Positions 1 to 21,454 of a DNA stretch of 49,982 bases are shown piece by piece. This DNA is from a virus (taxonomy: Duplodnaviria; Heunggongvirae; Uroviricota; Caudoviricetes), in the IMG/VR virus record IMGVR_UViG_2588253749_000002. One strand, written 5' to 3'. The notes beneath the pieces are model-generated. The model was not told the DNA's origin. It was given only the letters and a program-made list of their open reading frames with translations, and did not search any database. Both the position numbers and the translations under genes were made by a program. How positions within the stretch are numbered: the stretch's first letter is position 1; every line of letters begins with the position of its first letter.

Positions 1-1074
1 TCATTTGTCGATTTCAATTTTGTCCCATTCCCGTCCACGGCTGTCCCTATACCGCGCCGCCATTGAGTCTGATTTATGCCCGAGAAGACGTTGAGCAAAC
101 TTATCGCCAATCTGGTTCCGGTATAGCCTCGCTGACAGGCTACGCAGTTCATGGAATGTTGGCGGGTTTCCATCAAATGAGAGTCCAGATGCATTTCTCG
201 CCTTTGTAAAATACTTTGATACTGTTTTCGGGGAAAGCGGATCGTGATGCTTTGATGCGATTATAGTTTCACTGCTGCTGGCCTCCCTGCATTTCTGTAG
301 TGTATCAGCCAATGAGATATTGAGCGCGTCAATCGTTAGCGTTAGCGGAATGGCGAGTTTAGCCCCTGTTTTACTCTGTTCAATGTGAAGATGGTTGTCG
401 TTTATGTCTGACCATTTCATTCTGCACAAATCGCCGACTCTCTGCCCTGTAACGACGGCCAAATCCATCGCCAGCCTTAGCCAGATAGGGAGAGGTTCGG
501 CTGCATGGTAAATCTCGACATACTCATTAGCTGTCAGCCTTGAGCGCCTTACTTCTGACTTTGCTGTACGGGTTGCTGTTACCGGATTCGTTGCCACATG
601 CCCCTCGGCTATTGCTTCACGAAAAACGTCAACAAGGGTTGACCTGATTAATTTTGCGGAAGCTGCTTTACCTTCTGCTACGTAGGTGTTTAGCATTGCT
701 GCCACTTCTTTCGTTGATATGTCAGTGAGCGGTTTGTCCGGCAATTTTCTTCGGATTGCCCTGATTTTGCTGGCGTAGTCGAGTAGAGTTTTCGGCCTGA
801 TCCCCCTTTCGGTGAGGATTCTTTCATATCGGTCAAGCCACACATGAAGAGTGATTGCGTCACCGCCTTTAATTCTGTCTATCAGTGATTTGCGTCCGCT
901 GTCTGAGAGTAACTCAATATTGGCCTGTATTGCTTCAGTAATTGCTATCCTCCTGTCTCTGCCTAATCCGAACTCTTTACCCGTCCTTGGGTCCCTGTAG
1001 CAGTAATATCCATTGTTTCTTATATAAAGGTTAGGGGGTAAATCCCGGCGCTCATGACTTCGCCTTCTTCCCAT
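1..1074 (-). CDS. int: Tyrosine integrase, lambda Int family
   Basis: 357-aa ORF closely resembling lambda Int over its length; stop codon is the first 3 nt of the window; followed by overlapping xis. Confidence 0.9.
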   Translation of the reverse strand: MGRRRSHERRDLPPNLYIRNNGYYCYRDPRTGKEFGLGRDRRIAITEAIQANIELLSDSGRKSLIDRIKGGDAITLHVWLDRYERILTERGIRPKTLLDYASKIRAIRRKLPDKPLTDISTKEVAAMLNTYVAEGKAASAKLIRSTLVDVFREAIAEGHVATNPVTATRTAKSEVRRSRLTANEYVEIYHAAEPLPIWLRLAMDLAVVTGQRVGDLCRMKWSDINDNHLHIEQSKTGAKLAIPLTLTIDALNISLADTLQKCREASSSETIIASKHHDPLSPKTVSKYFTKARNASGLSFDGNPPTFHELRSLSARLYRNQIGDKFAQRLLGHKSDSMAARYRDSRGREWDKIEIDK

Positions 1075-1270
1075 TTCTGATCCTCTTCAAAAGGCTACCT
1101 GTTACTGGTCGATTTAAGTCAACCTTTACCGCTGATTCGTGGAACAGATACTCTCTTCCATCCTTAACCGGAGGAGGGAATATCCTGCACTCGCGTACCC
1201 ATCGACGAACTGTTTCAAGGCTTCTTGGGCGTCGCTGGCGTGCGTTCCACTCCTGAAGTGTCAAGTACAT
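1052..1270 (-). CDS. xis: Excisionase
   Basis: 72-aa ORF near-identical to lambda Xis (MYLTLQEWNARQRRPRSLETVRRW...); overlaps int start as in lambda. Confidence 0.9.
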   Translation of the reverse strand: MYLTLQEWNARQRRPRSLETVRRWVRECRIFPPPVKDGREYLFHESAVKVDLNRPVTGSLLKRIRNGKKAKS

Positions 1271-7608: not shown

Positions 7609-8390
7609 GCTGCCACCTTCTGCTCAGTGGCTTTCTGTTTCAGGAATCCAAGAGCTTTCACTGCTTCGGCCTGTGTCAGTTCTGACGATGCGCGAATGTC
7701 GCGGCGAAATATCTGGGAACAGAGCGGCAATAAGTCGTCATCCCATGTTTTATCCAGGGCGATCAGCAGAGTGTTAATCTCCTGCATGGTTTCATCGTTA
7801 ACCGGAGTGATGTCGCGTTCTGGCTGACGTTCTGCAGTGTATGCAGTATTTTCGACAATGCGCTCGGCTTCATCCTTGTCATAGATACCAGCAAATCCGA
7901 AGGCCAGACGGGCACACTGAATCATGGCTTTATGCCGTAACATCCGTTTGGGATGCGACTGCCACGGCCCCGTGATTTCTCTGCCTTCGCGGGTTTTGAA
8001 TGGTTCGCGGCGGCATTCATCCATCCATTCGGTAACGCAGATCGGATGATTACGGTCCTTGCGGTAAATCCGGCATGTACAGGATTCATTGTCCTGCTCA
8101 AAGTCCATGCCATCAAACTGCTGGTTTTCATTGATGATGCGGGACCAGCCATCAACGCCCACCACCGGAACGATGCCATTCTGCTTATCAGGAAAGGCGT
8201 AAATTTCTTTCGTCCATGGATTAAGGCCGTACTGGTTGGCAACGATCAGTAATGCGATGAACTGCGCATCGCTGGCATCACCTTTAAATGCCGTCTGGCG
8301 AAGAGTGGTGATCAGTTCCTGTGGGTCGACAGAATCCATGCCGACACGTTCAGCCAGCTTCCCTGCCAGCGTTGCGAGTGCTGTACTCAT
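7605..8390 (-). CDS. bet: Recombination protein Bet (Red beta)
   Basis: 261-aa ORF near-identical to lambda Bet. Confidence 0.95.
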
Positions 8391-8395
8391 CCGTT

Positions 8396-8692
8396 TTATA
8401 CCTCTGAATCAATATCAACCTGGTGGTGAGCAATGGTTTCAACCATGTACTGGATGTGTTCTGCCATGCGCTCCTGAAACTCAACATCGTCATCAAACGC
8501 ACGGGTAATGGCTTTTTTGCTGGCCCCGTGGCGTTGCAAATGATCGATGCATAGCGATTCAAACAGGTGCTGGGGCAGGCCTTTTTCCATGTCGTCTGCC
8601 AGTTCTGCCTCTTTCTCTTCACGGGCGATCTGCTGGTAGTGACGCGCCCAGCTCTGAGCCTCAAGACGATCCTGAATGTAATAAGCGTTCAT
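8396..8692 (-). CDS. gam: Host-nuclease (RecBCD) inhibitor Gam
   Basis: 98-aa ORF matching lambda Gam short form ([21 protein letters not shown]...). Confidence 0.9.
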
Positions 8693-9570: not shown

Positions 9571-10260
9571 CTACCCATGCTTCCTATATGTCTGCGGCAT
9601 GCTCCCAATAACCTTACCGAAGATGAACACCCGGTTCATCTCGTCTTTCTCGATCGGGTCCCACGGTGAGTAGCTTTTGTTATCAGAGATGACCAGCAGC
9701 TTATCCTTCATCATTTGCAGGCGCTTTACATGGGCTGTGTCGTCGTACAGAAACGCATAGATACCATCACCGTCGAAAGATTTAACTGTGATATCAACGA
9801 ACAGCAGATCACCTGGTTCGATCGTTCCTGACATGCTGTCACCACGCACGTTAATGATGCGGATATTTTCCGCCTTCCTACCATCGAACATGTGACGAGC
9901 ATCGTCAAACGAGTACTCAACCGAGCGTAGAACTTCTACAAACTCACGGTTGATGACTCCCGGCCCAGCACTGACTTCTATATCAAGAACGTCAATCTTG
10001 AAGTATTTGGAATGGCTGACAGTTGATTGTATTGGTTGCACTGTACTGTCTGACATATTTCCAACGCCAGAAGATAACCATTCTGCGCGCACACCCAAAG
10101 CGTTCGCGATCTCCACGATTTTAGTTGTTTGATTAGCTTTCCCTGTTTCGATTTTCTGAATAGCAGCCTGGCTAACCCCGACCAAATCCCCAAGCGCCTT
10201 TTGTGTAAGGCCTCGCGCTAATCTGGCTTCTTTAAGTCTTTCTGAGAGTGTTGTTTTCAT
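9571..10260 (-). CDS. cI: CI-type repressor (HTH plus S24 LexA-like peptidase domain)
   Basis: Track ORF 9571-10326; start taken at internal ATG (MKTTLSERLKEARLARGLTQKAL...) giving 229 aa; divergent from cro. Confidence 0.85.
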   Translation of the reverse strand: MKTTLSERLKEARLARGLTQKALGDLVGVSQAAIQKIETGKANQTTKIVEIANALGVRAEWLSSGVGNMSDSTVQPIQSTVSHSKYFKIDVLDIEVSAGPGVINREFVEVLRSVEYSFDDARHMFDGRKAENIRIINVRGDSMSGTIEPGDLLFVDITVKSFDGDGIYAFLYDDTAHVKRLQMMKDKLLVISDNKSYSPWDPIEKDEMNRVFIFGKVIGSMPQTYRKHG

Positions 10261-10301
10261 AGTCCAAATGTACAACCAAGGTTTTATTCCATCAAACGAA
10301 A

Positions 10302-10337
10302 ATGGTTGTTGACTAAAAACAACCATAGTTTTAATCT
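10302..10337 (+). promoter_or_regulatory. PR promoter with OR operator
   Basis: 25-bp palindrome ATGGTTGTT-GACTAAA-AACAACCAT containing -35 TTGACT, 17-bp spacer, -10 TAATCT; GGAGG RBS before cro. Confidence 0.6.
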
Positions 10338-10364
10338 TGATTCAAATTAACCACGGAGGTTGTT

Positions 10365-10595
10365 ATGAACCCAGCTATCAAAACAGCGATCAATATCGTT
10401 GGTTCACAAAAGAAACTGGGCGCTGCTTGCGAAGTTTCACAGCAGGCCGTCTATAAGTGGCTTCACAACAAAGCAAAGGTATCCCCTGAACATGTCGGCA
10501 GCATTGTTACGGCTACTGGTGGAGTAGTGAAGGCATACCAGATTCGCCCGGATCTTCCGAAGTTGTTTCCACACACCGAAAAGAACGCAGCTTAA
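10365..10595 (+). CDS. cro: Cro-like transcriptional regulator
   Basis: 76-aa HTH protein divergent from cI. Confidence 0.8.
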   Translation: MNPAIKTAINIVGSQKKLGAACEVSQQAVYKWLHNKAKVSPEHVGSIVTATGGVVKAYQIRPDLPKLFPHTEKNAA

Positions 10596-10607
10596 ATTTC
10601 CATTTCA

Positions 10608-10620
10608 CGCTCTTTAACAA
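10608..10620 (+). promoter_or_regulatory. boxA-like antitermination element (nutR position)
   Basis: CGCTCTTTAACAA directly downstream of cro, matching the boxA consensus; no boxB hairpin seen after it. Confidence 0.45.
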
Positions 10621-10664
10621 TAAGCAATCAACTTAACAGTCAATTCAAACTAAAGGAGTCAATT

Positions 10665-11204
10665 ATGCAACCACTTCCATACCAACAGACTAGCGGATTT
10701 AGCCCGACTGCGGTGATAAATCGTTCTCAAACAAAACAGGTGCCAGGCCACGAAAAAATCCGTGATGCCGTCCGCGCCTGGTCGGCTGTAGATAATCAGG
10801 ATGTCGTTGCCACACTCATTGTGAATGAGTATCGGGAGCAGGGCGGCGGCACCATCGATTTCCCTGATGATGTCAGCCGTGCACGCCAGAAGCTGTTCCG
10901 CTTCCTCGATAACAAATTCGATTCTGAAAAATACCGAAATAACGTGCGTGAACTGACCCCGGCAATTCTGGCGGTACTACCGCTGGAATATCGCGGTTAC
11001 CTGGTTGAGCAGGATAGCTTCATGGCCAGGTTGGCTGAAATGGAAAAGGAACTCAGTGAGGCAAAACAGGCTGTCATTCTCAACGCACCACGCCACCAGA
11101 AACTGAAGGAAATTAGTGAAGGTATTGTATCGATGTTTCGTGTGGACCCAGATCTGGCTGGTCCATTGATGGCGATGGTTACTACCATGCTGGGGGCGAT
11201 ATGA
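10665..11204 (+). CDS. CII-position regulator, YdaT-like family (tentative)
   Basis: 179-aa ORF in the cII position with RBS AAGGAG; recalled resemblance to prophage YdaT-family proteins. Confidence 0.5.
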   Translation: MQPLPYQQTSGFSPTAVINRSQTKQVPGHEKIRDAVRAWSAVDNQDVVATLIVNEYREQGGGTIDFPDDVSRARQKLFRFLDNKFDSEKYRNNVRELTPAILAVLPLEYRGYLVEQDSFMARLAEMEKELSEAKQAVILNAPRHQKLKEISEGIVSMFRVDPDLAGPLMAMVTTMLGAI

Positions 11205-11290
11205 CAGGTTCAGAAATGGCGAAAGCCGGTCTGCTGGAACAGAACCGACTTTCAGGTGCAAATCGTAACACACTCATTGCGGGAGGAATT

Positions 11291-12220
11291 ATGGCAAACA
11301 CTGCTGAGATATTCAATTTTCCAGTGCCGGATGCGGCACAAAAGGAGCCGCGCGTGGCAGATCTCGATGATGGTTATACGCGCATTGCAAATGAGTTGCT
11401 GGAAGCTGTGATGCTGGCCGGATTAACACAGCACCAGCTTCTGGTCTTCCTGGCTGTCATGCGCAAAACATATGGCTTTAATAAAAAACTGGATTGGGTG
11501 AGCAACGAGCAACTGTCCGGATTGACCGGGATATTACCGCACAAGTGTTCTGCTGCAAAAAGTGTTCTGGTAAAGCGTGGGATTTTGATTCAGAGCGGGC
11601 GGAATATCGGTATTAATAATGTGGTCAGTGAATGGTCAACATTACCCGAATCAGGTAAGAAAAATAAAGTTTACCTGAAAGAGGTAAATTTACCTGAATC
11701 AGGTAAGAAAAGTTTACCCAAATCAGGTAAAGGCGTTTACCCGAATCAGGTAAACACAAAAGACAAACTAACAAAAGACAATATAAAACCTTTTTCGTCC
11801 GAGAATTCTGGCGAATCCTCTGACCAACCAGAAAACGATCTTCCTGTGGTGAAACCAGATGCTGCAATTCAGAGCGGCAGCAAGTGGGGGACAGCAGAAG
11901 ACCTGACCGCCGCAGAGTGGATGTTTGACATGGTGAAGACCATCGCACCATCAGCCAGAAAACCGAATTTTGCAGGGTGGGCTAACGATATCCGCCTGAT
12001 GCGTGAACGTGACGGACGTAACCACCGCGACATGTGCGTGCTTTTCCGCTGGGCATGCCAGGACAACTTCTGGTCCGGTAACGTGCTAAGTCCGGCCAAA
12101 CTCCGCGACAAGTGGACCCAACTCGAAATCAACCGTAACAAGCAACAGGCAGGCATGATAGCCAGCAAACCAAAACTCGACCTGACAAACACTGACTGGA
12201 TTTACGGGGTGGATTTATGA
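11291..12220 (+). CDS. O: Replication initiator O
   Basis: N-terminal region like lambda O (MANTAEIFNF...ADLDDGY...); strong GGGAGGA RBS before ATG 11291; iterons inside the gene; stop overlaps P start. Confidence 0.85.
   Translation: MANTAEIFNFPVPDAAQKEPRVADLDDGYTRIANELLEAVMLAGLTQHQLLVFLAVMRKTYGFNKKLDWVSNEQLSGLTGILPHKCSAAKSVLVKRGILIQSGRNIGINNVVSEWSTLPESGKKNKVYLKEVNLPESGKKSLPKSGKGVYPNQVNTKDKLTKDNIKPFSSENSGESSDQPENDLPVVKPDAAIQSGSKWGTAEDLTAAEWMFDMVKTIAPSARKPNFAGWANDIRLMRERDGRNHRDMCVLFRWACQDNFWSGNVLSPAKLRDKWTQLEINRNKQQAGMIASKPKLDLTNTDWIYGVDL
11642..11753. repeat. Origin iterons (ori) inside O
   Basis: Four to five direct repeats TTACC(C/T)(G/A)AATCAGGTAA(G/A) at about 24-bp spacing (11642, 11670 degenerate, 11690, 11714, 11737) followed by an A-rich stretch. 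Confidence 0.7.
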
Positions 12221-12919
12221 AAAACATCGCCGCACAGATGGTTAACTTTGACCGTGAGCAGATGCGTCGGATCGCCAACAACATGCCGGAAACAGTACGA
12301 CGAAAAGCCGCAGGTACAGCAGGTAGCGCAGATCATCAACGGTGTGTTCAGCCAGTTACTGGCAACTTTCCCGGCGAGCCTGGCTAACCGTGACCAGAAT
12401 GAACTGAACGAAATCCGCCGCCAGTGGGTGCTGGCTTTTCGGGAAAACGGGATCACCACAATGGAACAGGTTAACGCTGGAATGCGCGTAGCCCGTCGGC
12501 AGAATCGACCATTCCTGCCATCACCCGGGCAGTTTGTCGCCTGGTGCCGGGAAGAAGCATCCGTTACCGCCGGGCTGCCAAACGCCAGCGAGCTGGTTGA
12601 TATGGTTTACGAGTATTGCCGGACGCGCGGGCTGTATCCGGATGCAGAGTCTTATCCGTGGAAATCAAACGCGCACTACTGGCTGGTTACCAACCTGTAT
12701 CAGAACATGCGGGCCAATGCGTTGACTGACGCGGAATTACGGCGCAAGGCTGCCGATGAACTGTCCTGTATGACCGCACGAATTAACCGTGGTGAGGCTA
12801 TACCTGAACCAGTAAAACAACTTCCTGTCATGGGCGGTAGACCTCTAAATCGTGCACAGGCTCTGGCGAAGATCGCAGAAATCAAAGCTAAGTTTGGGCT
12901 GAAAGGAGCAAGGGTATGA
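12217..12919 (+). pseudogene. P: Replication protein P, frameshifted
   Basis: ATG 12217 gives MKNIAAQMVNFDREQMRRIANNMPE, then the frame runs to a stop at 12385-12387; the rest of P continues in the +1 frame to 12919; consistent with one extra A in the run at 12290-12292. Confidence 0.8.
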
Positions 12920-13230
12920 CGGGCAAAGAGGCAATTATTCATTACCTGGGGACTCATAAGAAATTCTGTGCGCAGGACGTTGCCGCGGTAACAGGCGCAA
13001 CGGTAACCAGCATAAATCAGGCTGCGGCTAAAATGGCACGGGCAGGTCTTCTGGCTATCGAAGGTAAGGTCTGGCGAACGGTGTATTACCGGTTTGCTAC
13101 CAGAGAAAAACGGGAAGGAAAGGTGAGCACGAATCTGATTTTTAAGGAGTGTCGCCAGAGTGCCGCGATGAAACGGGTATTGAGGGTATTGGATTTGCCC
13201 CTATATTTCCAGACATCTGTTATCACTTAA
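12916..13230 (+). CDS. ren: Ren-like protein, 3' end altered by IS2 insertion
   Basis: First 90 or so aa match lambda Ren; reading frame enters the IS2 end at 13190. Confidence 0.8.
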
Positions 13231-14106
13231 CCCATTACAAGCCCGCTGCCGCAGATATTCCCGTGGCGAGCGATAACCCAGCGCACTATGCGGATGCCAT
13301 TCGTTATAATGCTCGAACGCCTCTGCAAGGTTCTTTGCTGCCGTTAACCCGTCTGGTTTGGGCATGATACTGATGTAGTCACGCTTTATCGTTTTCACGA
13401 AGCTCTCTGCTATTCCGTTACTCTCCGGACTCCGCACCGCCGTGTTCTTCGGTTCAAGTCCCAACATCCGGGCGAACTGGCGTGTTTCATTAGCCCGGTA
13501 GCATGAACCATTATCCGTCAGCCACTCCACTGGAGACGACGGAAGATCGTTGCCGAAGCGGCGTTCCACCGCTCCCAGCATGACGTCCTGTACTGTTTCA
13601 CTGTTGAAGCCGCCGGTAGTCACCGCCCAGTGCAGTGCCTCACGATCACAGCAGTCCAGCGCGAACGTGACACGCAGTCTCTCTCCGTTATCACAGCAGA
13701 ACTCGAACCCGTCAGAGCACCATCGCTGATTGCTTTCTTTCACGGCCACTCTGCCTGTATGTGCCCGTTTCGATGGCGGTACAGCAGGTTTTCGCTCAAG
13801 CAACAGCGCATTCTGGCGCATGATCCGGTAAACACGTTTGGCATTGATCGCAGGCATACCATCAAGTTCTGCCTGTCTGCGAAGCAGCGCCCATACCCGA
13901 CGATAACCATACGTGGGCAGCTCTCCGATAACATGGTGTATACGGAGAAGCACATCCGTATCATCAGTGTGACGACTGCGGCGGCCATCCATCCAGTCAT
14001 CGGTTCGTCTGAGAATGACGTGCAACTGCGCACGCGACACCCGGAGACAACGGCTGACTAAGCTTACTCCCCATCCCCGGGCAATAAGGGCGCGTGCGCT
14101 ATCCAC
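13201..14106 (-). CDS. insD: IS2 transposase OrfB (InsD)
   Basis: 301-aa DDE transposase ORF overlapping insC. Confidence 0.9.
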
Positions 14107-14429
14107 TTTTTTGCCCGTCCATATTCAACGGCTTCTTTGAGGAGTTCATTTTCCATCGTTTTCTTGCCGAGCAGGCGCTGGAGTTCTTTAATCTGCTTCA
14201 TGGCGGCAGCAAGTTCAGAGGCAGGAACAACCTGTTCTCCGGCGGCGACAGCAGTAAGACTTCCTTCCTGGTATTGCTTACGCCAGAGAAATAACTGGCT
14301 GGCTGCTACACCATGTTGCCGGGCAACGAGGGAGACCGTCATCCCCGGTTCAAAGCTCTGCTGAACAATTGCGATCTTTTCCTGTGTGGTACGCCGTCTG
14401 CGTTTCTCCGGCCCTAAGACATCAATCAT
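14064..14429 (-). CDS. insC: IS2 transposase OrfA (InsC)
   Basis: 121 aa from [14 protein letters not shown]... Confidence 0.9.
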
Positions 14430-14621
14430 CTGTTCTCCAATGACTAGTCTAAAAACTAGTATTAAGACTATCACTTATTTAAGTGATACTGGTTGTCTGG
14501 AGATTCAGGGGGCCAGTCTAGGTATATAAAAGAACATCAATGGGTACACAATGATGAAACAGGTGAGTTGAGTTCAAACTGTAGTACAATTCTCTCCAGT
14601 TTGAACAGGAAAGAATATTCT

Positions 14622-14954
14622 ATGAACCCTTATATTTATCTTGGTGGTGCAATACTTGCAGAGGTCATTGGTACAACCTTAATGAAGTTTTCAGAAGGTT
14701 TTACACGGTTATGGCCATCTGTTGGTACAATTATTTGTTATTGTGCATCATTCTGGTTATTAGCTCAGACGCTGGCTTATATTCCTACAGGGATTGCTTA
14801 TGCTATCTGGTCAGGAGTCGGTATTGTCCTGATTAGCTTACTGTCATGGGGACTTTTCGGCCAACGGCTGGACCTGCCAGCCATTATAGGCATGATGTTG
14901 ATTTGTGCCGGTGTGTTGGTTATTAATTTATTGTCACGAAGCACACCACATTAA
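14622..14954 (+). CDS. emrE: SMR-family multidrug efflux transporter EmrE
   Basis: 110 aa from MNPYIYLGGAILAEVIGTTLMKFSEGF...; four TM segments; low-GC context. Confidence 0.9.
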   Translation: MNPYIYLGGAILAEVIGTTLMKFSEGFTRLWPSVGTIICYCASFWLLAQTLAYIPTGIAYAIWSGVGIVLISLLSWGLFGQRLDLPAIIGMMLICAGVLVINLLSRSTPH

Positions 14955-15210
14955 AAATAATTTGTTTCTAAACGACTAAAATATGGAGGCTCTTATATTT
15001 ATATGAGCCTCGTTTTATGCTTTTTGTTAATGTCTTTATTTTTTTATGTATTCTTTTGTGCTTTCAAGATTATGGCGTAAGAAAATTGCAATACGATTAT
15101 TGTTGTATATTCAAGATAATGTGACCTTAATTGTCTTTTTAAATAAAAATTAAACAAAAATTATATCCCACCACTAAGGTTTATAAAAGCATACGTTAGC
15201 AGGTGTCACC

Positions 15211-16737
15211 ATGAAAAAAGCCATAGCATATATGCGATTTTCATCACCAGGTCAGATGTCTGGCGACTCATTAAACCGACAGAGAAGACTTATTGCTGAA
15301 TGGTTAAAGGTAAATAGTGATTATTATCTTGATACCATAACATATGAAGATTTAGGATTAAGTGCATTCAAAGGAAAGCATGCACAATCAGGAGCTTTTT
15401 CGGAATTTTTAGATGCTATAGAGCATGGTTATATATTGCCAGGAACTACATTGTTAGTTGAAAGTCTGGACAGACTTTCAAGAGAAAAAGTCGGTGAAGC
15501 GATTGAACGTCTGAAATTGATTTTGAATCACGGTATTGATGTTATAACTCTTTGCGACAATACAGTCTATAATATTGACTCTTTGAATGAGCCATATTCA
15601 TTAATAAAAGCCATACTTATAGCACAAAGGGCAAATGAAGAAAGCGAGATAAAGTCAAGTCGGGTTAAATTATCATGGAAGAAAAAACGGCAGGATGCAC
15701 TGGAGTCAGGCACGATTATGACGGCGTCTTGTCCGAGATGGCTCTCATTGGATGACAAAAGAACAGCTTTTATTCCAGACCCCGACAGGGTGAAAACGAT
15801 TGAGCTAATTTTTAAACTCAGGATGGAAAGGCGATCATTGAATGCAATAGCCAAGTATTTAAATGATCATGCTGTAAAAAATTTCTCAGGAAAAGAAAGT
15901 GCATGGGGGCCTTCTGTAATTGAAAAATTATTAGCGAATAAAGCTCTGATAGGTATATGCGTACCTTCATATCGTGCAAGAGGTAAAGGAATAAGTGAAA
16001 TCGCTGGCTATTATCCCAGAGTCATATCAGATGATTTGTTTTACGCTGTGCAGGAAATTCGATTGGCACCTTTTGGTATTAGCAATAGTAGCAAAAATCC
16101 TATGTTGATAAATCTACTTCGAACAGTTATGAAGTGCGAGGCTTGTGGTAATACCATGATTGTTCATGCGGTATCTGGAAGTTTGCATGGCTATTATGTT
16201 TGTCCGATGAGAAGACTGCATCGATGTGACAGGCCATCAATAAAGAGAGATTTGGTTGATTATAATATCATTAATGAGTTGCTTTTTAATTGTAGTAAAA
16301 TCCAACCAGTTGAAAACAAGAAAGATGCTAATGAAACTTTAGAGTTGAAAATTATTGAGCTCCAGATGAAAATTAATAATTTAATTGCTGCATTATCTGT
16401 TGCGCCTGAAGTTACCGCTATAGCAGAAAAAATCAGAGTATTAGATAAGGAATTACGAAGGGCTTCTGTATCATTAAAAACTTTGAAGAGTAAAGCGGTG
16501 AGCTCACTTGGTGATTTTCATGCTATTGACTTAACCAGTAAAAATGGGCGAGAGCTATGTCGTACACTTGCCTATAAAACATTCGAAAAAATCATAATCA
16601 ATACAGATAATAAAACCTGTGATATCTATTTTATGAATGGCATTGTTTTTAAACACTATCCTTTAATGAAAACAATATCCGCCCAGCAGGCGATAAGTAC
16701 TCTCAAATATATGGTTGATGGTGAGGTTTATTTTTGA
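15211..16737 (+). CDS. ybcK: Large serine recombinase (YbcK-like)
   Basis: 508 aa; N-terminal resolvase-type domain with candidate Ser in YMRFSSPGQ, Cys-rich zinc-ribbon segment and C-terminal coiled coil; AT-rich. Confidence 0.85.
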   Translation: MKKAIAYMRFSSPGQMSGDSLNRQRRLIAEWLKVNSDYYLDTITYEDLGLSAFKGKHAQSGAFSEFLDAIEHGYILPGTTLLVESLDRLSREKVGEAIERLKLILNHGIDVITLCDNTVYNIDSLNEPYSLIKAILIAQRANEESEIKSSRVKLSWKKKRQDALESGTIMTASCPRWLSLDDKRTAFIPDPDRVKTIELIFKLRMERRSLNAIAKYLNDHAVKNFSGKESAWGPSVIEKLLANKALIGICVPSYRARGKGISEIAGYYPRVISDDLFYAVQEIRLAPFGISNSSKNPMLINLLRTVMKCEACGNTMIVHAVSGSLHGYYVCPMRRLHRCDRPSIKRDLVDYNIINELLFNCSKIQPVENKKDANETLELKIIELQMKINNLIAALSVAPEVTAIAEKIRVLDKELRRASVSLKTLKSKAVSSLGDFHAIDLTSKNGRELCRTLAYKTFEKIIINTDNKTCDIYFMNGIVFKHYPLMKTISAQQAISTLKYMVDGEVYF

Positions 16738-16848
16738 GTAATAATCACTTTTTCAACCGTGCTATAGTAAGAAAGTTAGGGAAGTACAATAAAATTATCT
16801 ATCCTGAACGAAGCGTCCTGAGCTATGGTTTTACTATAGGGACTGCCA

Positions 16849-17172
16849 ATGGATGCTGGCGTTCTCGTTCTAGCAGTTCAACAATTCCCAATCACAAAAC
16901 AATTCACTGATAACGAACTTTGCACACTCGCCTGGTTATGGCGAGCAGGGGATGCGATGTTAACCGCCTGCCAGAACGTTACTCCCCTTCTTCAGGTTGC
17001 GGAGCATCGTGAAGCTGGTCGCTTCACTTCCATCGAGCAAGAATATTCCCAGATACTCACCAGAGCGCGAGCAATCCTCGCCAGAGAAACGGCACATGTA
17101 AAATTCCAGCCGTGGCTGGATGATAAGTGGAGTCGAGTGTTACCATATTTCCGTCAGAATCTGTTGCAATAA
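16849..17172 (+). CDS. Hypothetical protein
   Basis: 107-aa ORF followed by a clear terminator. Confidence 0.45.
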   Translation: MDAGVLVLAVQQFPITKQFTDNELCTLAWLWRAGDAMLTACQNVTPLLQVAEHREAGRFTSIEQEYSQILTRARAILARETAHVKFQPWLDDKWSRVLPYFRQNLLQ

Positions 17173-17192
17173 AGTCACTGGTTAGAAATACT

Positions 17193-17230
17193 GCCAGCAT
17201 TCTACGATGACGGAAGTGCTGGCATTTTTT
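17193..17230 (+). terminator. Rho-independent terminator
   Basis: GCCAGCA...TGCTGGC hairpin followed by ATTTTTT. Confidence 0.5.
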
Positions 17231-17410
17231 GGGGTAATGTGCGAGTCCATTTCATAAAATACGGGTGCTGTAAACTGGACGAAATAATCTAAAAGACACC
17301 ATTACCAGTAGCATTCAAATCGCTATGTGCCGATACGGATAAAATTATATTGATTGTTCACATACCTTATTGGATATTACTGAGGGGTATTTATATAAGG
17401 TGTAACGATA

Positions 17411-17917
17411 ATGTGGAACTTTGACAGTGCCGACTTAAGTGCAATAGCAGCAGGCATTTCTGCGTTTGGCACATTAGCCGCAGCGGGGTCGGCGCTTGCA
17501 AGTTGGTACACGTCAAAAAAAGCGCTGCAGCTACAAAATAGAGTTTACCTTTATGAGTCTTTAAAGGCTTGCGCTGAGAGAGCCAATACATCAGCTAAAG
17601 ATAAGCGCGGATCTGAATGGAGCGTTAATGATGCAGCGGATATCATCAGGTGCCTGGTACGGGCGATGGAGATCATCAAGCAGGATAGCCAGCAGAAAGA
17701 AGGTAATCAGGCATTAATGTTGAAACAGTACTTTGTTAATCTGCTAATAATGGAACTGTACGAGGAAGTTCATAACGGTGATGTGGCTGATTCTGTTTTT
17801 AAAAGTACGGAACCTACACAAGTACTTGATAATTTATGGAACAAATGGCAGGAGGCTATAGCTTTTTTTGATATTTGGAATTACCCAGTTGTGACTGAGG
17901 AAGACTTGGCAGACTAA
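17411..17917 (+). CDS. Hypothetical membrane-anchored protein
   Basis: 168 aa; N-terminal hydrophobic helix (LSAIAAGISAFGTLAAAGSALASWY); own AT-rich upstream region and RBS. Confidence 0.5.
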   Translation: MWNFDSADLSAIAAGISAFGTLAAAGSALASWYTSKKALQLQNRVYLYESLKACAERANTSAKDKRGSEWSVNDAADIIRCLVRAMEIIKQDSQQKEGNQALMLKQYFVNLLIMELYEEVHNGDVADSVFKSTEPTQVLDNLWNKWQEAIAFFDIWNYPVVTEEDLAD

Positions 17918-18111
17918 TTTTCAGCACATTTGATTTCCCATAATCAACCAGCCATAATCATGCCATTGGAGCTTGAACAACTCCGGTGACTTCTGCGCTA
18001 AACGGGGACGTTTATGCGCACATACAATCCAAACTATCTTCTCCCTTCACAGATGCAGAAATGCACCTGCGATATCTTGCATCCAGCGTTTGATCTCTGC
18101 GGAGGTGAAGC

Positions 18112-18567
18112 GTGAACTTCCCACAAGATGGCATCAAACTGCATCGCGGTAACTTCACCGCTATCGGTCGGCAGATCCAGCCTTATCTGGAGGACGGCAA
18201 ATGCTTTCGCATGGTGCTTAAACCATGGCGCGAGAGACGCAGTCTTTCCCAGAATGCACTCAGCCACATGTGGTACAGCGAAATCAGTGAATACCTCATC
18301 AGCAGGGGTAAAACGTTCGCCACTCCAGCTTGGGTAAAAGATGCTCTCAAACACACTTATCTCGGTTATGAAACCAAAGAACTGGTTGATGTCGTAACCG
18401 GTGAAATCACCACCATTCAGTCATTACGTCATACCTCCGATCTCGATACCGGAGAGATGTATGTCTTCCTGTGTAAGGTTGAAGCCTGGGCGATGAATAT
18501 TGGCTGCCACCTGACTATTCCGCAGAGCTGCGAGTTCCAGCTGCTGCGCGACAAGCAGGAGGCGTAA
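18112..18567 (+). CDS. ybcN: NinB/Orf-family recombination protein (YbcN-like)
   Basis: 151-aa ORF matching DLP12 YbcN. Confidence 0.8.
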
Positions 18568-18737
18568 TGGCTACACCGCTTATTCGTGTCATGAACGGAC
18601 ACATCTACAAAGTACCAAATCGTCGTAAGCGTAAACCTGAGCTGAAGCCATCCGAAATACCAACTCTGCTCGGATATACCGCCAGCCTGGTTGATAAAAA
18701 ATGGTTGCGACTGGCAGCAAGGAGGAATCATGGCTGA
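18567..18737 (+). CDS. ninE: NinE-like protein
   Basis: 56-aa ORF below the track cutoff ([27 protein letters not shown]...[13 protein letters not shown]), ATG overlapping ybcN stop. Confidence 0.6.
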   Translation: MATPLIRVMNGHIYKVPNRRKRKPELKPSEIPTLLGYTASLVDKKWLRLAARRNHG

Positions 18738-19020
18738 TTTGAGAAAAGCAGCGCGTGGTCGGGAATGCCAGGTAAGAATCCCTGGCGTATGTAATGGCAA
18801 TCCTGAAACGTCAGTACTGGCACATATCCGGCTGGCTGGATTGTGCGGTACCGGTATCAAACCGCCAGACCTGATTGCCACCATTGCATGTTCTGCCTGC
18901 CACGACGAAATCGACCGTCGCACGCATTTTGTTGACGCTGGATATGCAAAAGAATGCGCGCTGGAAGGTATGGCGAGAACACAGGTTATCTGGTTGAAAG
19001 AGGGGGTTATTGAGGCGTGA
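18730..19020 (+). CDS. ybcO: YbcO-like putative nuclease (DUF1364)
   Basis: 96 aa from [19 protein letters not shown]... Confidence 0.8.
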
Positions 19021-19379
19021 ATACCTACAGCATCACATTACCCTGGCCGCCGAGCAATAACCGCTACTACCGGCATAATCGCGGGCGCACGCACATCAGC
19101 GCAGAAGGGCAGGCATACCGTGATAACGTCGCCCGAATCATTAAAGGCTCAATGCTGGATATCGGCCTGGCTATTCCTGTGAAAATCCGCATAGAGTGCC
19201 ACATGCCGGATCGCCGTCGCCGTGACCTGGATAATCTGCAAAAAGCCGCTTTTGACGCACTCACCAAAGCAGGTTTCTGGCTGGATGATGCTCAGGTCGT
19301 TGATTACCGCGTTGTGAAGATGCCTGTTACCAAAGGTGGGAGGCTGGAACTGACCATCACCGAAATGGGGAATGAATGA
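19017..19379 (+). CDS. rusA: Holliday-junction resolvase RusA
   Basis: 120-aa ORF matching RusA ([18 protein letters not shown]...); GTG start. Confidence 0.9.
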
Positions 19380-19516
19380 TGTTTGAGTTTTATATGGCAG
19401 AACTTCTTCGCCACCGCTGGGGGCATCTGCGCTTATATCGTTTCCCCGGTTCTGTTTTGACCGATTACCGAATACTGAAGAATTACGCCAAAACCCTGAC
19501 AGGAGCAGGAGTATGA
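19376..19516 (+). CDS. ylcG: YlcG-like small protein
   Basis: 46-aa ORF below the track cutoff ([46 protein letters not shown]); coordinates +/-1. Confidence 0.5.
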
Positions 19517-19602
19517 AGTCAGAGATAACAATCAACTAATACTGTTTTGTTGATTTTTGCTTGTAATTGGCGTTTCTGGTCTGATTTTTGTGGAGTAAGT
19601 TG

Positions 19603-19986
19603 ATGCGTGATATTCAGATGGTTCTTGAGCGTTGGGGAGCGTGGGCGGCTAATAATCATGAAGATGTGACCTGGTCGTCCATTGCCGCCGGTTTTAAGGG
19701 ATTAATTCCTTCAAAAGTAAAATCTCGCCCGCAATGTTGTGACGATGACGCGATGATCATTTGCGGGTGCATGGCCCGTCTGAAAAAGAACAACAGCGAT
19801 TTGCACGATTTATTAGTAGATTATTATGTAGTCGGTATGACATTCATGTCACTGGCAGGTAAGCATTGCTGCTCTGATGGTTATATCGGGAAAAGGTTAC
19901 AAAAGGCTGAGGGCATAATTGAAGGGATGTTAATGGCATTAGATATCCGGTTAGAGATGGATATCGTTGTTAATAACTCTAATTAA
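19603..19986 (+). CDS. quuD: Late-gene antiterminator Q (QuuD-like)
   Basis: 127 aa from [22 protein letters not shown]... with a Cys cluster. Confidence 0.85.
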
Positions 19987-20019
19987 TACGCCAATTATTT
20001 ACTAAAAGTTATTAAAAAT

Positions 20020-20037
20020 GGGGCGTTGAAACGCCCC
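20020..20037 (-). terminator. Hairpin with T-run downstream of nmpC
   Basis: GGGGCG-TTGAAA-CGCCCC followed on the minus strand by ATTTTT. Confidence 0.4.
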
Positions 20038-20174
20038 CAAAAATAAAGGGTAATATATAACAGAAGGTTTGTATAGTTAGAAGCAAGGTTGTGCTTCTAA
20101 AGGAAGTGGCTTGAGGGAGCCACTTATATGTTGGGGAGGCAAAGCCTCCCACAACATATCTTTTAGTAATCAAA

Positions 20175-21257
20175 TTAGAACTGGTAAACCATACCTACAG
20201 CAACGATATCATCGGTAGCAACGCCAGATGCTTTCGTGAAATCGCTCTTATCAATCAGGTTGATTTTGTAGTCAACAAAAGTGGACATATTTTTGTTGAA
20301 GTAATAGGTTGCACCTACATCAACATATTCAACCAGGTCCTGATCACCCCAAACACCCAAGTCTTTTCCTTTAGAATGCAGGTAAGCAACGGATGGACGC
20401 AGGCCGAAGTCGAACTGATATTGTGCAACAGCTTCGAAGTTTTGTGCTTTGTTGGCAATATGGTTATTACCAAAAACAGTCATGTTCTGGGTTTCAGAAT
20501 AGGTGGTGGCCAGATAGATGTTGTTCGCATCATATTTCAGACCAGCTGCCCATACTTCAGCATTTTGACCAGAAGCATTCAGACCGTTGTTACCGTAGAT
20601 AACCTGATTATTAGTGCGATCAGATTTAGCATAGGTTGCACCTACACCGAATCCTTCATACTCATAAGTAGTGGAGAAACCGAAACCATCACCATTAGCT
20701 TCAGTTACGTCAGTGCGGTCATTTTTACCCTGATACTGAGCAGCAAAGTTCAGACCATCAACCAGACCAAAGAAGTCGTTGTTACGATAAGTTGCAACAC
20801 CAGTGGTGCGACCAGTCATGAACACATCTGTTTGAGTCCAAGTGTCACCACCGAATTCTGGCAGGACGTCAGTCCACGCACCGATGTCGTATGCTACACC
20901 GTAGTTACGGCCGTAATCGATGGAGCCGTAGTCACCGAATTTCAGGCCAGCGAAGGCAAGACGGGTTTTATCTTTGGAGGAACCTTGAGATTCAGCGCGG
21001 TTGCCTTTGAATTCATATTCCCACTGACCGAAACCAGTCAGTTGATCGTTGATTTGGGTTTCACCTTTGAAGCCAAGACGGGCATAAGTAGTATCACCAT
21101 CATCTGCATCATTAGAGGAGAAGTAGTGCTTAGCATTAACTTTCCCGTACAGATCCAGCTTGTTACTGTCTTTATTATAAATTTCAGCTGCCTGAGCAGA
21201 CATCGCCATCAGTACTGATGCAGCTACAGCAGAAATTGCCACTGTTAATTTTTTCAT
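20175..21257 (-). CDS. nmpC: Outer-membrane porin, NmpC/OmpD type
   Basis: 360 aa from [23 protein letters not shown] (signal peptide), C-terminal ...VGMVYQF; opposite strand to flanking phage late genes. Confidence 0.85.
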
Positions 21258-21454
21258 CGTGAGCCCTTTTTTTGAACTATTATTAAAAAATGATGTCACT
21301 GCGCGATAAATATTCATCTAATCAATATGATTATTTCAAGATGTAAGTTTTAGTTTCTCATTTAATTTGTGAAGTAGATCTCTATTTTTATCTGAACTTT
21401 TTCTATCGAAACCTATTTATGGCTCTTATTTGAACAAAAATAAACCTATTAGCT

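Follow-up and report, generated by a model that had tools for sequence, protein, structure and literature searches.

The emrE-ybcK block and its slot

The stretch of DNA analysed here (the window; 49,982 nucleotides, IMG/VR virus record IMGVR_UViG_2588253749_000002) holds a lambdoid E. coli prophage that is largely complete and collinear with phage Perceval across the early, lysis, head and tail regions. Its early-right operon carries cI, cro, cII, O, P and ren in that order. The insertion sequence (IS) IS2 splits ren, and beyond ren lies an AT-rich block that encodes the small multidrug resistance efflux transporter EmrE and YbcK, a large serine recombinase (LSR) of 508 amino acids (aa; Table 1). 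A preliminary description, made from the sequence alone, had read this block as a cargo island and proposed that a second site-specific recombinase within the prophage could mark a nested mobile module or an inversion or excision switch. The evidence presented here points instead to two separate cargo cassettes of low guanine plus cytosine (GC) content, of the kind carried by DLP12, and to a recombinase that probably acts at sites other than those flanking its own gene.

Table 1. Features of the window considered in the text (positions count from its first nucleotide).
Feature	Position	Strand	Remarks
Lambda-type tyrosine integrase gene	1-1074	-	357 aa; HELRS...LLGH...Y motifs present
72-aa open reading frame (ORF), putative Xis by position alone	1052-1270	-	directly upstream of int, as in Perceval
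ren, split by IS2	12916-14554	+	last nine codons (from 14528) are the DLP12-type allele that always precedes emrE
IS2, 1331 bp	13190-14520	-	inside ren; NCBIfam TnpB 727.6 bits, TnpA 275.8 bits
Low-GC replacement segment, 2334 bp	14528-16861	+	occupies the left side of the variable ren-ninB/ybcN slot
emrE, small multidrug resistance efflux transporter, 110 aa	14622-14954	+	own cassette, ~14545-14962
ybcK cassette, ~1.84 kb	14963-16805	+	249-bp leader, gene and ~70 bp of 3' flank; right end approximate, 16800-16817
Terminator-like hairpin, GAGGCUC...GAGCCUC plus U-rich tract	14986-15011	+	left end of the ybcK cassette
ybcK leader	15056-15210	+	conserved blocks 15076-15150 and 15181-15210
ybcK, large serine recombinase, 508 aa	15211-16737	+	three Pfam domains
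Truncated 3' part of rha/antirepressor gene	16849-17172	+	Pfam P22_AR_C 2.8e-16; right-hand mosaic joint
nmpC-type porin gene, intact	20175-21317	-	downstream of the Q antiterminator gene; K-12 copy broken by IS5

The block stands out by its composition. GC content is 0.53-0.57 in IS2, drops to 0.31-0.39 from ~14400 to 16800, and then rises to 0.485 (about 0.5 in the flanks), so that the low-GC island with emrE noticed after IS2 in the preliminary description is borne out. Its extent can be taken from PhiR5_1, which is near-isogenic with the window (96-97.5% identity on either side of the segment). Positions 14528-16861 of the window stand in place of 1499 bp of PhiR5_1 that hold three small ORFs and the 5' part of rha; the rha gene is full-length in PhiR5_1, and homology between the two restarts at 16862. 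By this comparison the island lies close to where it had been placed, but its right end is at 16861 and not at 16737.

The left mosaic breakpoint falls at 14527/14528, in codon 92 of ren. Up to 14527 the window is 94.8% identical to the P-ren region of lambda and 97.5% identical to PhiR5_1, and lambda itself diverges at the same nucleotide. K-12, EDL933, Perceval, PhiR5_1, lambda and the window all part ways after this codon, and K-12, EDL933, Perceval and PhiR5_1 rejoin 183 bp upstream of ninB/ybcN. The slot so defined holds emrE-ybcK-ybcL-ybcM in K-12 (4.06 kb, of low GC throughout), emrE-ybcK in EDL933, emrE-ybcK with a rha fragment and a hydrolase gene in Perceval, and emrE-ybcK with the 3' part of rha and a 168-aa ORF in the window. 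It is where lambdoid phages exchange non-essential genes, and its variation is, on these alignments, ordinary lambdoid mosaicism at a cargo slot. Like other lambdoid accessory cargo, the block lies between conserved modules and differs from the backbone in composition, and some close relatives have it while others lack it.

IS2 is flanked by a 5-bp target duplication, GGTAT, read from the sequence at 13185-13189 and 14521-14525, and K-12, EDL933, Perceval and PhiR5_1 lack the insertion. The duplication ends 2 bp from the mosaic breakpoint, a proximity that looks coincidental because the same breakpoint occurs without IS2 in other genomes.

The block is already known, widely distributed and ordinary cargo. 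RefSeq labels the same stretch ren, emrE, ylcJ and ybcK, and the 5' region of ybcK is found in 1,405 of 5,426 complete E. coli genomes (about a quarter). The block also occurs in isolated, viable lambdoid phages, namely Perceval, 4A7, Lambda_4C10, 1W, 3W, D2, Turner and several PhiR phages. The Perceval record already labels the gene "Large serine recombinase", and this phage also has a tyrosine Int and Xis. Plasmid contexts were rejected, as the full-length PLSDB matches lie on records of 1.3-4.9 Mb that are evidently mislabelled chromosomes; the remaining PLSDB matches are to distantly related emrE/qacG genes only.

Distribution and boundaries of the emrE and ybcK cassettes

EmrE of the window matches Pfam Multi_Drug_Res (PF00893, 3e-35) and the NCBIfam EmrE model (239.6 bits, cut-off 226), and shares 108 of its 110 residues (98%) with EmrE of K-12. 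In some 2,290 E. coli genomes, emrE-ybcL-ybcM occurs without ybcK between fliE and a yedK remnant, with emrE at about 90-92% identity (for example in E. coli Ecol_276, locus L001 6001-7940). As the match starts in the last 10 bp of ren, this block appears to be what is left of another lambdoid prophage. At its other end, the match of the fliE-locus emrE to the window stops at 14961/14962. When K-12 is compared with the emrE-ybcL-ybcM arrangement, a clean 2083-bp indel appears that begins 8 nt past the emrE stop codon, at window position 14962/14963. Across 57 distinct haplotypes, synonymous diversity is 0.053 in ybcK and 0.015 in emrE, a 3.5-fold difference, and the step falls at 14955-14985.

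Because emrE occurs without ybcK and diversity steps up at the boundary between them, the two genes are, by distribution and polymorphism, two separate cassettes and not one module. This disagrees with the nested mobile module of the preliminary description: emrE and ybcK assort separately, and the edges of the island are generic lambdoid junctions.

In four different downstream contexts, common sequence reaches only as far as ~16803-16817. From this shared extent and the clean indel it follows that ybcK behaves as a cassette of ~1.84 kb. A Pantoea homologue shows a unit of the same kind: 94% identity extends from -223 to +56 relative to the gene, the flanks on either side are unrelated, and the cassette occurs in two contexts. 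An apparent insertion of this cassette in a P-like gene (locus L034) was rejected, being a mosaic joint with a truncated second P (residues 76-229, 64% identity). The right-hand breakpoints are spread over 16746/16776, 16803, 17020, 17154, 17165 and 17223, a scatter that fits homologous or illegitimate exchange rather than one crossover point. Over positions 16738-16810, the 70 bp past the ybcK stop codon, diversity is 0.12-0.23, compared with 0.053 at synonymous sites, and the 3' flank of K-12 is still alignable to that of the window, being far more diverged than the 98%-identical gene. The divergence of this flank suggests that a recombination breakpoint may lie right at the stop codon.

Other sequences are found at or near the cassette edges in particular genomes. 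An IS1 is inserted at 15011 in one locus (L125 1-436), and an IS of 1.33 kb at the equivalent of window positions 16786-16788 in another (L114 5579-6911). In K-12 (locus L003), an AT-rich segment of 240 bp with a hairpin and a perfect 13-nt inverted repeat (AAAATACGTGACA/TGTCACGTATTTT) lies at 8285-8524, between ybcK and ybcL; neither the window nor the copy at the fliE locus has this segment.

The left end of the cassette has features of its own. The terminator-like hairpin folds with -15.5 kcal/mol (z = -3.39; 0 of 200 shuffles equal it) and lies within a hypervariable stretch. In the conserved blocks of the leader diversity is 0.016-0.03, compared with 0.053 at synonymous sites. A 19-bp direct repeat at 15056-15074 and 15103-15121 (TTGTGCTTTCAAGATTATG / TTGTATATTCAAGATAATG, 47 bp spacing) falls partly in a conserved block and could be a candidate regulatory or binding site. 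A Rho/NusG-dependent terminator has been described in the untranslated region upstream of ybcK, and ybcK mRNA is increased in rho and nusG mutants (PMC4150792); the gene is used in the literature as a model of Rho termination. We found no paper on the function of YbcK, which otherwise appears as a "predicted recombinase"; in a panel of 16 recombinase knockouts, loss of ybcK had no effect on excision of the H47 island.

The small ORF ylcJ lies in the same leader region (window 15002-15151). It encodes 49 aa in K-12, is frameshifted in the window, where a T7 run stands for T6, and differs again in O157. We therefore rejected ylcJ as a directionality factor, and on the same grounds it is unlikely to be a conserved partner of YbcK. 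A scan of positions 13000-18500 gave no match to an RNA family in Rfam, and promoter-like matches numbered 11, with 10.9 expected from shuffles.

The recombinase YbcK, its relatives and its sites

Three Pfam domains were found in YbcK above their gathering scores: Resolvase (PF00239, residues 4-161, 7.8e-19), Recombinase (PF07508, residues 191-284, 2.3e-14) and Zn_ribbon_recom (PF13408, residues 302-357, 8.2e-08). In an alignment of 24 family sequences reaching down to 29% identity, residues R9, S11, Q15, D87, R88, R91 and E144 are invariant, and at least 90% of the sequences share the zinc-ribbon cysteines C309, C312, C331 and C339. The resolvase-type domain and the cysteine cluster that the preliminary description had recognized in the 508-aa ORF are thus confirmed by the domain matches and conserved cysteines, and the loss of catalytic residues, which it had named as evidence against its reading, was not seen. 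A search of the PDB with the single YbcK sequence gave no match, and only the family profile did. Profile positions 190-476 align with residues 37-321 of the C-terminal fragment of the A118 integrase (4kis; E = 2.7e-16), and the N-terminus of YbcK aligns, again through the family profile, with the catalytic domain of the TP901-1 integrase. By this profile comparison only, the A118 alignment passes through the expected coiled-coil region of YbcK.

YbcK of the window is identical to YbcK of K-12 (P77698) at 497 of 508 residues (98%). Among 85 copies of ybcK from E. coli and IMG/VR, 84 are intact. The ratio of nonsynonymous to synonymous divergence (dN/dS, Nei-Gojobori) has a median of 0.064 over 620 pairs with dS > 0.03 (dS about 0.1), and diversity at the three codon positions is 0.014, 0.0045 and 0.053. 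Under such strong purifying selection ybcK is not a relic. At the level of sequence, these data show that YbcK is an intact, conserved LSR that selection keeps functional, and the enzyme looks functional.

The prophage's own integrase is the lambda-type Int encoded at the left end of the window and not YbcK, which is a second recombinase beside a tyrosine integrase, as had been noted before. In tblastn, Int is 38.7% identical to the Int of Perceval over 367 aa; in NCBIfam it matches tyrosine recombinase models, each under its cut-off. An element's own integrase is expected at the edge of the element; ybcK is a gene of the nin region, flanked on either side by phage genes and ~14 kb away from the prophage end that carries int. 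Nor is it the only integrase-type gene in its phages, given the tyrosine Int of the window and the Int/Xis pair that Perceval carries in addition to YbcK.

Homologues of YbcK at 40-60% identity were found in Atlantibacter, Yersinia, Pantoea, Ewingella, Citrobacter and Erwinia, and in the contexts examined they are single genes tied to prophages or integrated elements. Those of Pantoea (L010) and Atlantibacter (L013) lie in the nin region, and others after tail genes near the prophage end. In Ewingella and another enterobacterium, umuD/umuC-like genes adjoin the homologue (L015 8148-9865, L016, L014 11604-13351); in L014 they are followed by the gene of a small serine recombinase of 194 aa.

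More distant relatives, at 37-39% identity over the full length, are the LSRs of 7-10 kb islands that split hofB, which encodes an ATPase of type II secretion systems and type IV pili, at codon 311. These islands were found in Mixta, Serratia fonticola, Leclercia and Rahnella (L026-L029, ~9940-20200 in each locus). HofB residues 311-461 are encoded just left of the LSR gene and residues 1-310 sit 7-10 kb off. The LSR gene has its start codon 52 bp from the junction, the junctions carry 22-bp imperfect inverted arms equidistant from the crossover, and the cargo includes two AbiTii genes, a small resolvase and a Shedu nuclease. A sister group of islands adjoins cmoA-cmoB (L030, L031, L033). Judged by the precise insertion into hofB, the YbcK family contains genuine integrases of small defence islands. 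We know of no published name for these LSR-borne hofB/cmoA defence islands.

Traces of local recombination were sought in the population. The junction between emrE and ybcK is intact in 1,400 complete E. coli genomes, compared with the 1,405 that carry the 5' region of ybcK; one of the few exceptions is a match to the last 130 bp of the query only. Of 80 IMG/VR loci, 79 keep the junction, and an IS1 breaks it in the other. The match containing ybcK runs unbroken leftward across emrE into ren except in three of these loci, of which two begin with the ybcK start codon and the third is a contig interrupted in the IS1 at 15011. In all 28 metagenome contigs that include the left end of the cassette, the 3' end of emrE adjoins it. 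On this side the module is essentially invariant and free of recombination junctions, a result that the preliminary description had itself named as speaking against mobility. The listed matches, about 1,500, are each a single collinear piece, with no inverted copies. In the 50-kb window no inverted repeats of at least 24 nt bracket a plausible segment, and repeat finding gave none above chance in the region. The pattern expected of joined ends (a circle junction) had 0 matches in viral contigs and 0 in metagenome contigs, assemblies being a weak test for it.

The cassette ends were also aligned locally with each other and compared with random pairs from the same AT-rich island. Their similarity was not above that of random pairs (P = 0.12 for direct and P = 0.47 for inverted repeats, in a low-power test), and the ends of the whole island gave no repeat signal (P = 0.95). 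These values put numbers on the earlier remark that no repeats resembling attachment (att) sites were seen by eye. A certain LSR insertion, that in hofB, served as positive control and reached only P ~0.09, so that att sites are not excluded by the lack of repeats. The ends of the E. coli and Pantoea cassettes have an 8-mer in common (TTAGAAAC) as well as short palindromes, which were dropped as indistinguishable from chance. Taken together, the genomes and contigs compared show YbcK as not visibly recombining the DNA next to itself.

We consider it probable, at about 0.6, that the emrE-ybcK block consists of two low-GC cargo cassettes of a DLP12-type lambdoid prophage and that the LSR acts at sites that do not flank it. 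The gene is co-oriented with the delayed-early operon of pR. In the lysogen, the hairpin past emrE and the Rho/NusG-dependent terminator described for the leader would keep ybcK silent, and the protein would be made after infection or induction, once phage antitermination reads through. YbcK would then work as its relatives do, joining two short att sites through a serine-DNA intermediate in the manner of an integrase, and these sites would lie somewhere other than its own flanks. Its likeliest use may be as a second, Xis-independent route of integration or recombination for the phage.

Several points weigh against this reading. Its mechanistic part draws on family membership. Instead, ybcK might be under strong purifying selection in a cryptic prophage because the host benefits from it or because it is often exchanged with active phages. 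The relatives at 49-60% identity are often found at prophage ends beside host DNA (next to ssrA in Atlantibacter, a tRNA fragment in Yersinia and yedK in Citrobacter), and some of them could be primary integrases. Homologues in this range of identity are found on DHIB01000016.1 (Atlantibacter), DANMWH010000013.1 (Yersinia) and CDHL01000051.1 (Citrobacter). PADLOC assigned 0 families to YbcK and the two downstream ORFs, and a role in defence is neither supported nor excluded by this result.

The alternative that survives best, although we hold it to be rather unlikely, is that the 1.84-kb ybcK cassette is a minimal element with its own att ends, self-mobile at present or until recently in the manner of Tn4451 or Tn5397, which would place itself in prophage cargo slots. 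It would account for the clean presence/absence polymorphism between emrE and ybcL, the step in diversity at the left edge of the cassette and the hypervariable 3' flank. It would also agree with the 94%-identical Pantoea cassette in unrelated flanks, with homologues that occur as lone genes at varied prophage positions (in nin, past tail-fibre genes and at the ends), and with more distant relatives that are proven island integrases. However, the E. coli cassette is never found away from emrE (~1,400 of 1,405 genomes, 79 of 80 viral contigs, the other being broken by an IS1, and all 28 metagenome contigs), and multiple insertion sites were not seen within the species. Circle or tandem junctions were not found in viral or metagenome contigs, and the end repeats were not significant in the low-power test described above. 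The K-12 indel has ~240 bp extra past the shared right end, the downstream breakpoints are scattered, and the Pantoea L034 cassette abuts a truncated duplicate of P, which makes it a mosaic joint and not a clean insertion. A wider form of the idea is offered only tentatively, as it is more doubtful still: YbcK-type genes may form a distinct group of ~1.8-kb single-gene LSR cassettes in the cargo slots of enterobacterial temperate phages (in nin and past the tail-fibre genes), kept by purifying selection either as a second, Xis-free route or as autonomous hitch-hikers.

It is decidedly unlikely that the whole low-GC block is an eroded LSR-borne island which YbcK once integrated into the nin region, K-12 having the fullest form (4.06 kb) and the window, O157 and fliE-locus forms being deletion derivatives. 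Low GC is contiguous over all four K-12 genes, the LSRs of relatives come with 7-10 kb of cargo, and the variants do differ by parts lost or replaced. Yet the block is bounded by generic lambdoid junctions, one at ren codon 92, as in lambda, and one 183 bp before ninB, the LSR gene is internal and not terminal, the island ends are without repeat signal, and the 3.5-fold difference in synonymous diversity separates emrE from ybcK.

It is very improbable that ybcK is inert and in decay, left in a cryptic prophage by an old recombination event, a view which the selection data already contradict. In its favour, the DLP12 prophage of K-12 is defective, the gene has no published function, and it is transcriptionally silenced by Rho. 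The near-complete set of intact copies, a dN/dS of ~0.06, the diversity profile over codon positions, catalytic residues that are invariant across genera and the carriage of ybcK by viable phages all stand against decay. Finally, it is scarcely credible that YbcK drives an inversion or excision switch in the prophage, as the preliminary description had also suggested: the sole support is a second site-specific recombinase with intact catalytic residues, and it is opposed by the integrase-type LSR architecture of YbcK, unlike that of the ~190-aa Hin/Gin/Pin-type invertases, by the lack of an above-chance inverted repeat in the region or of a suitable one of at least 24 nt in the window, and by ~1,500 single collinear matches in a population sample with neither inverted copies nor circle junctions.

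The block itself matters little, being already annotated in K-12 and in phage records. The remaining point of interest is YbcK, which is among the few site-specific recombinases of K-12 without a known substrate. A new pair of att sites for this enzyme would be of some use in genome engineering, and would explain why a lambdoid phage keeps two integrase-type enzymes.

Comparison with known systems

YbcK differs in size from the recombinases of the Hin, Gin, Cin and Pin switches, which have ~190 aa and a C-terminal helix-turn-helix and act on a segment bounded by inverted repeats. The clostridial elements Tn4451 and Tn5397 encode LSRs (TnpX and TndX, respectively) that mobilise their own segment through a circular intermediate. 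The ybcK cassette differs in that neither multiple insertion sites nor a circle junction nor a conserved end dinucleotide could be found for it.

The LSRs of A118/LI, TP901-1, phiC31 and Bxb1 have the same order of domains as YbcK, with the nucleophilic serine and the catalytic arginines conserved. Compared with these phage integrases, YbcK is distant in sequence, its gene is not at the edge of the element by attP, and its phage already has a tyrosine Int/Xis system. The LSRs of the hofB/cmoA islands of Serratia, Leclercia, Rahnella, Mixta, Erwinia and Klebsiella belong to the same family, at 37-39% identity over the full length. They are terminal in their islands and accompanied by AbiTii, Shedu and a small resolvase, whereas YbcK is internal to a phage, without such cargo and without disruption of a target gene.

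In its slot, composition, hairpin and presence/absence pattern, the block resembles lambdoid morons and nin-region cargo (lom and bor; nmpC and sitABCD in Perceval). Morons usually encode fitness factors that are expressed in the lysogen, and a DNA recombinase that is silenced in the lysogen is atypical among them.

The closest counterpart is DLP12 of K-12, which has the same genes in the same order, ren-emrE-(ylcJ)-ybcK, upstream of ybcN-ninE-ybcO-rusA-quuD-nmpC. The two differ in that ren is cut by IS2 in the window and by IS3 in DLP12, and in that the window has the rha fragment and the 168-aa ORF where DLP12 has ybcL-ybcM. With its nmpC intact and with head, tail and lysis regions collinear with Perceval, the prophage of the window appears far more complete than DLP12.

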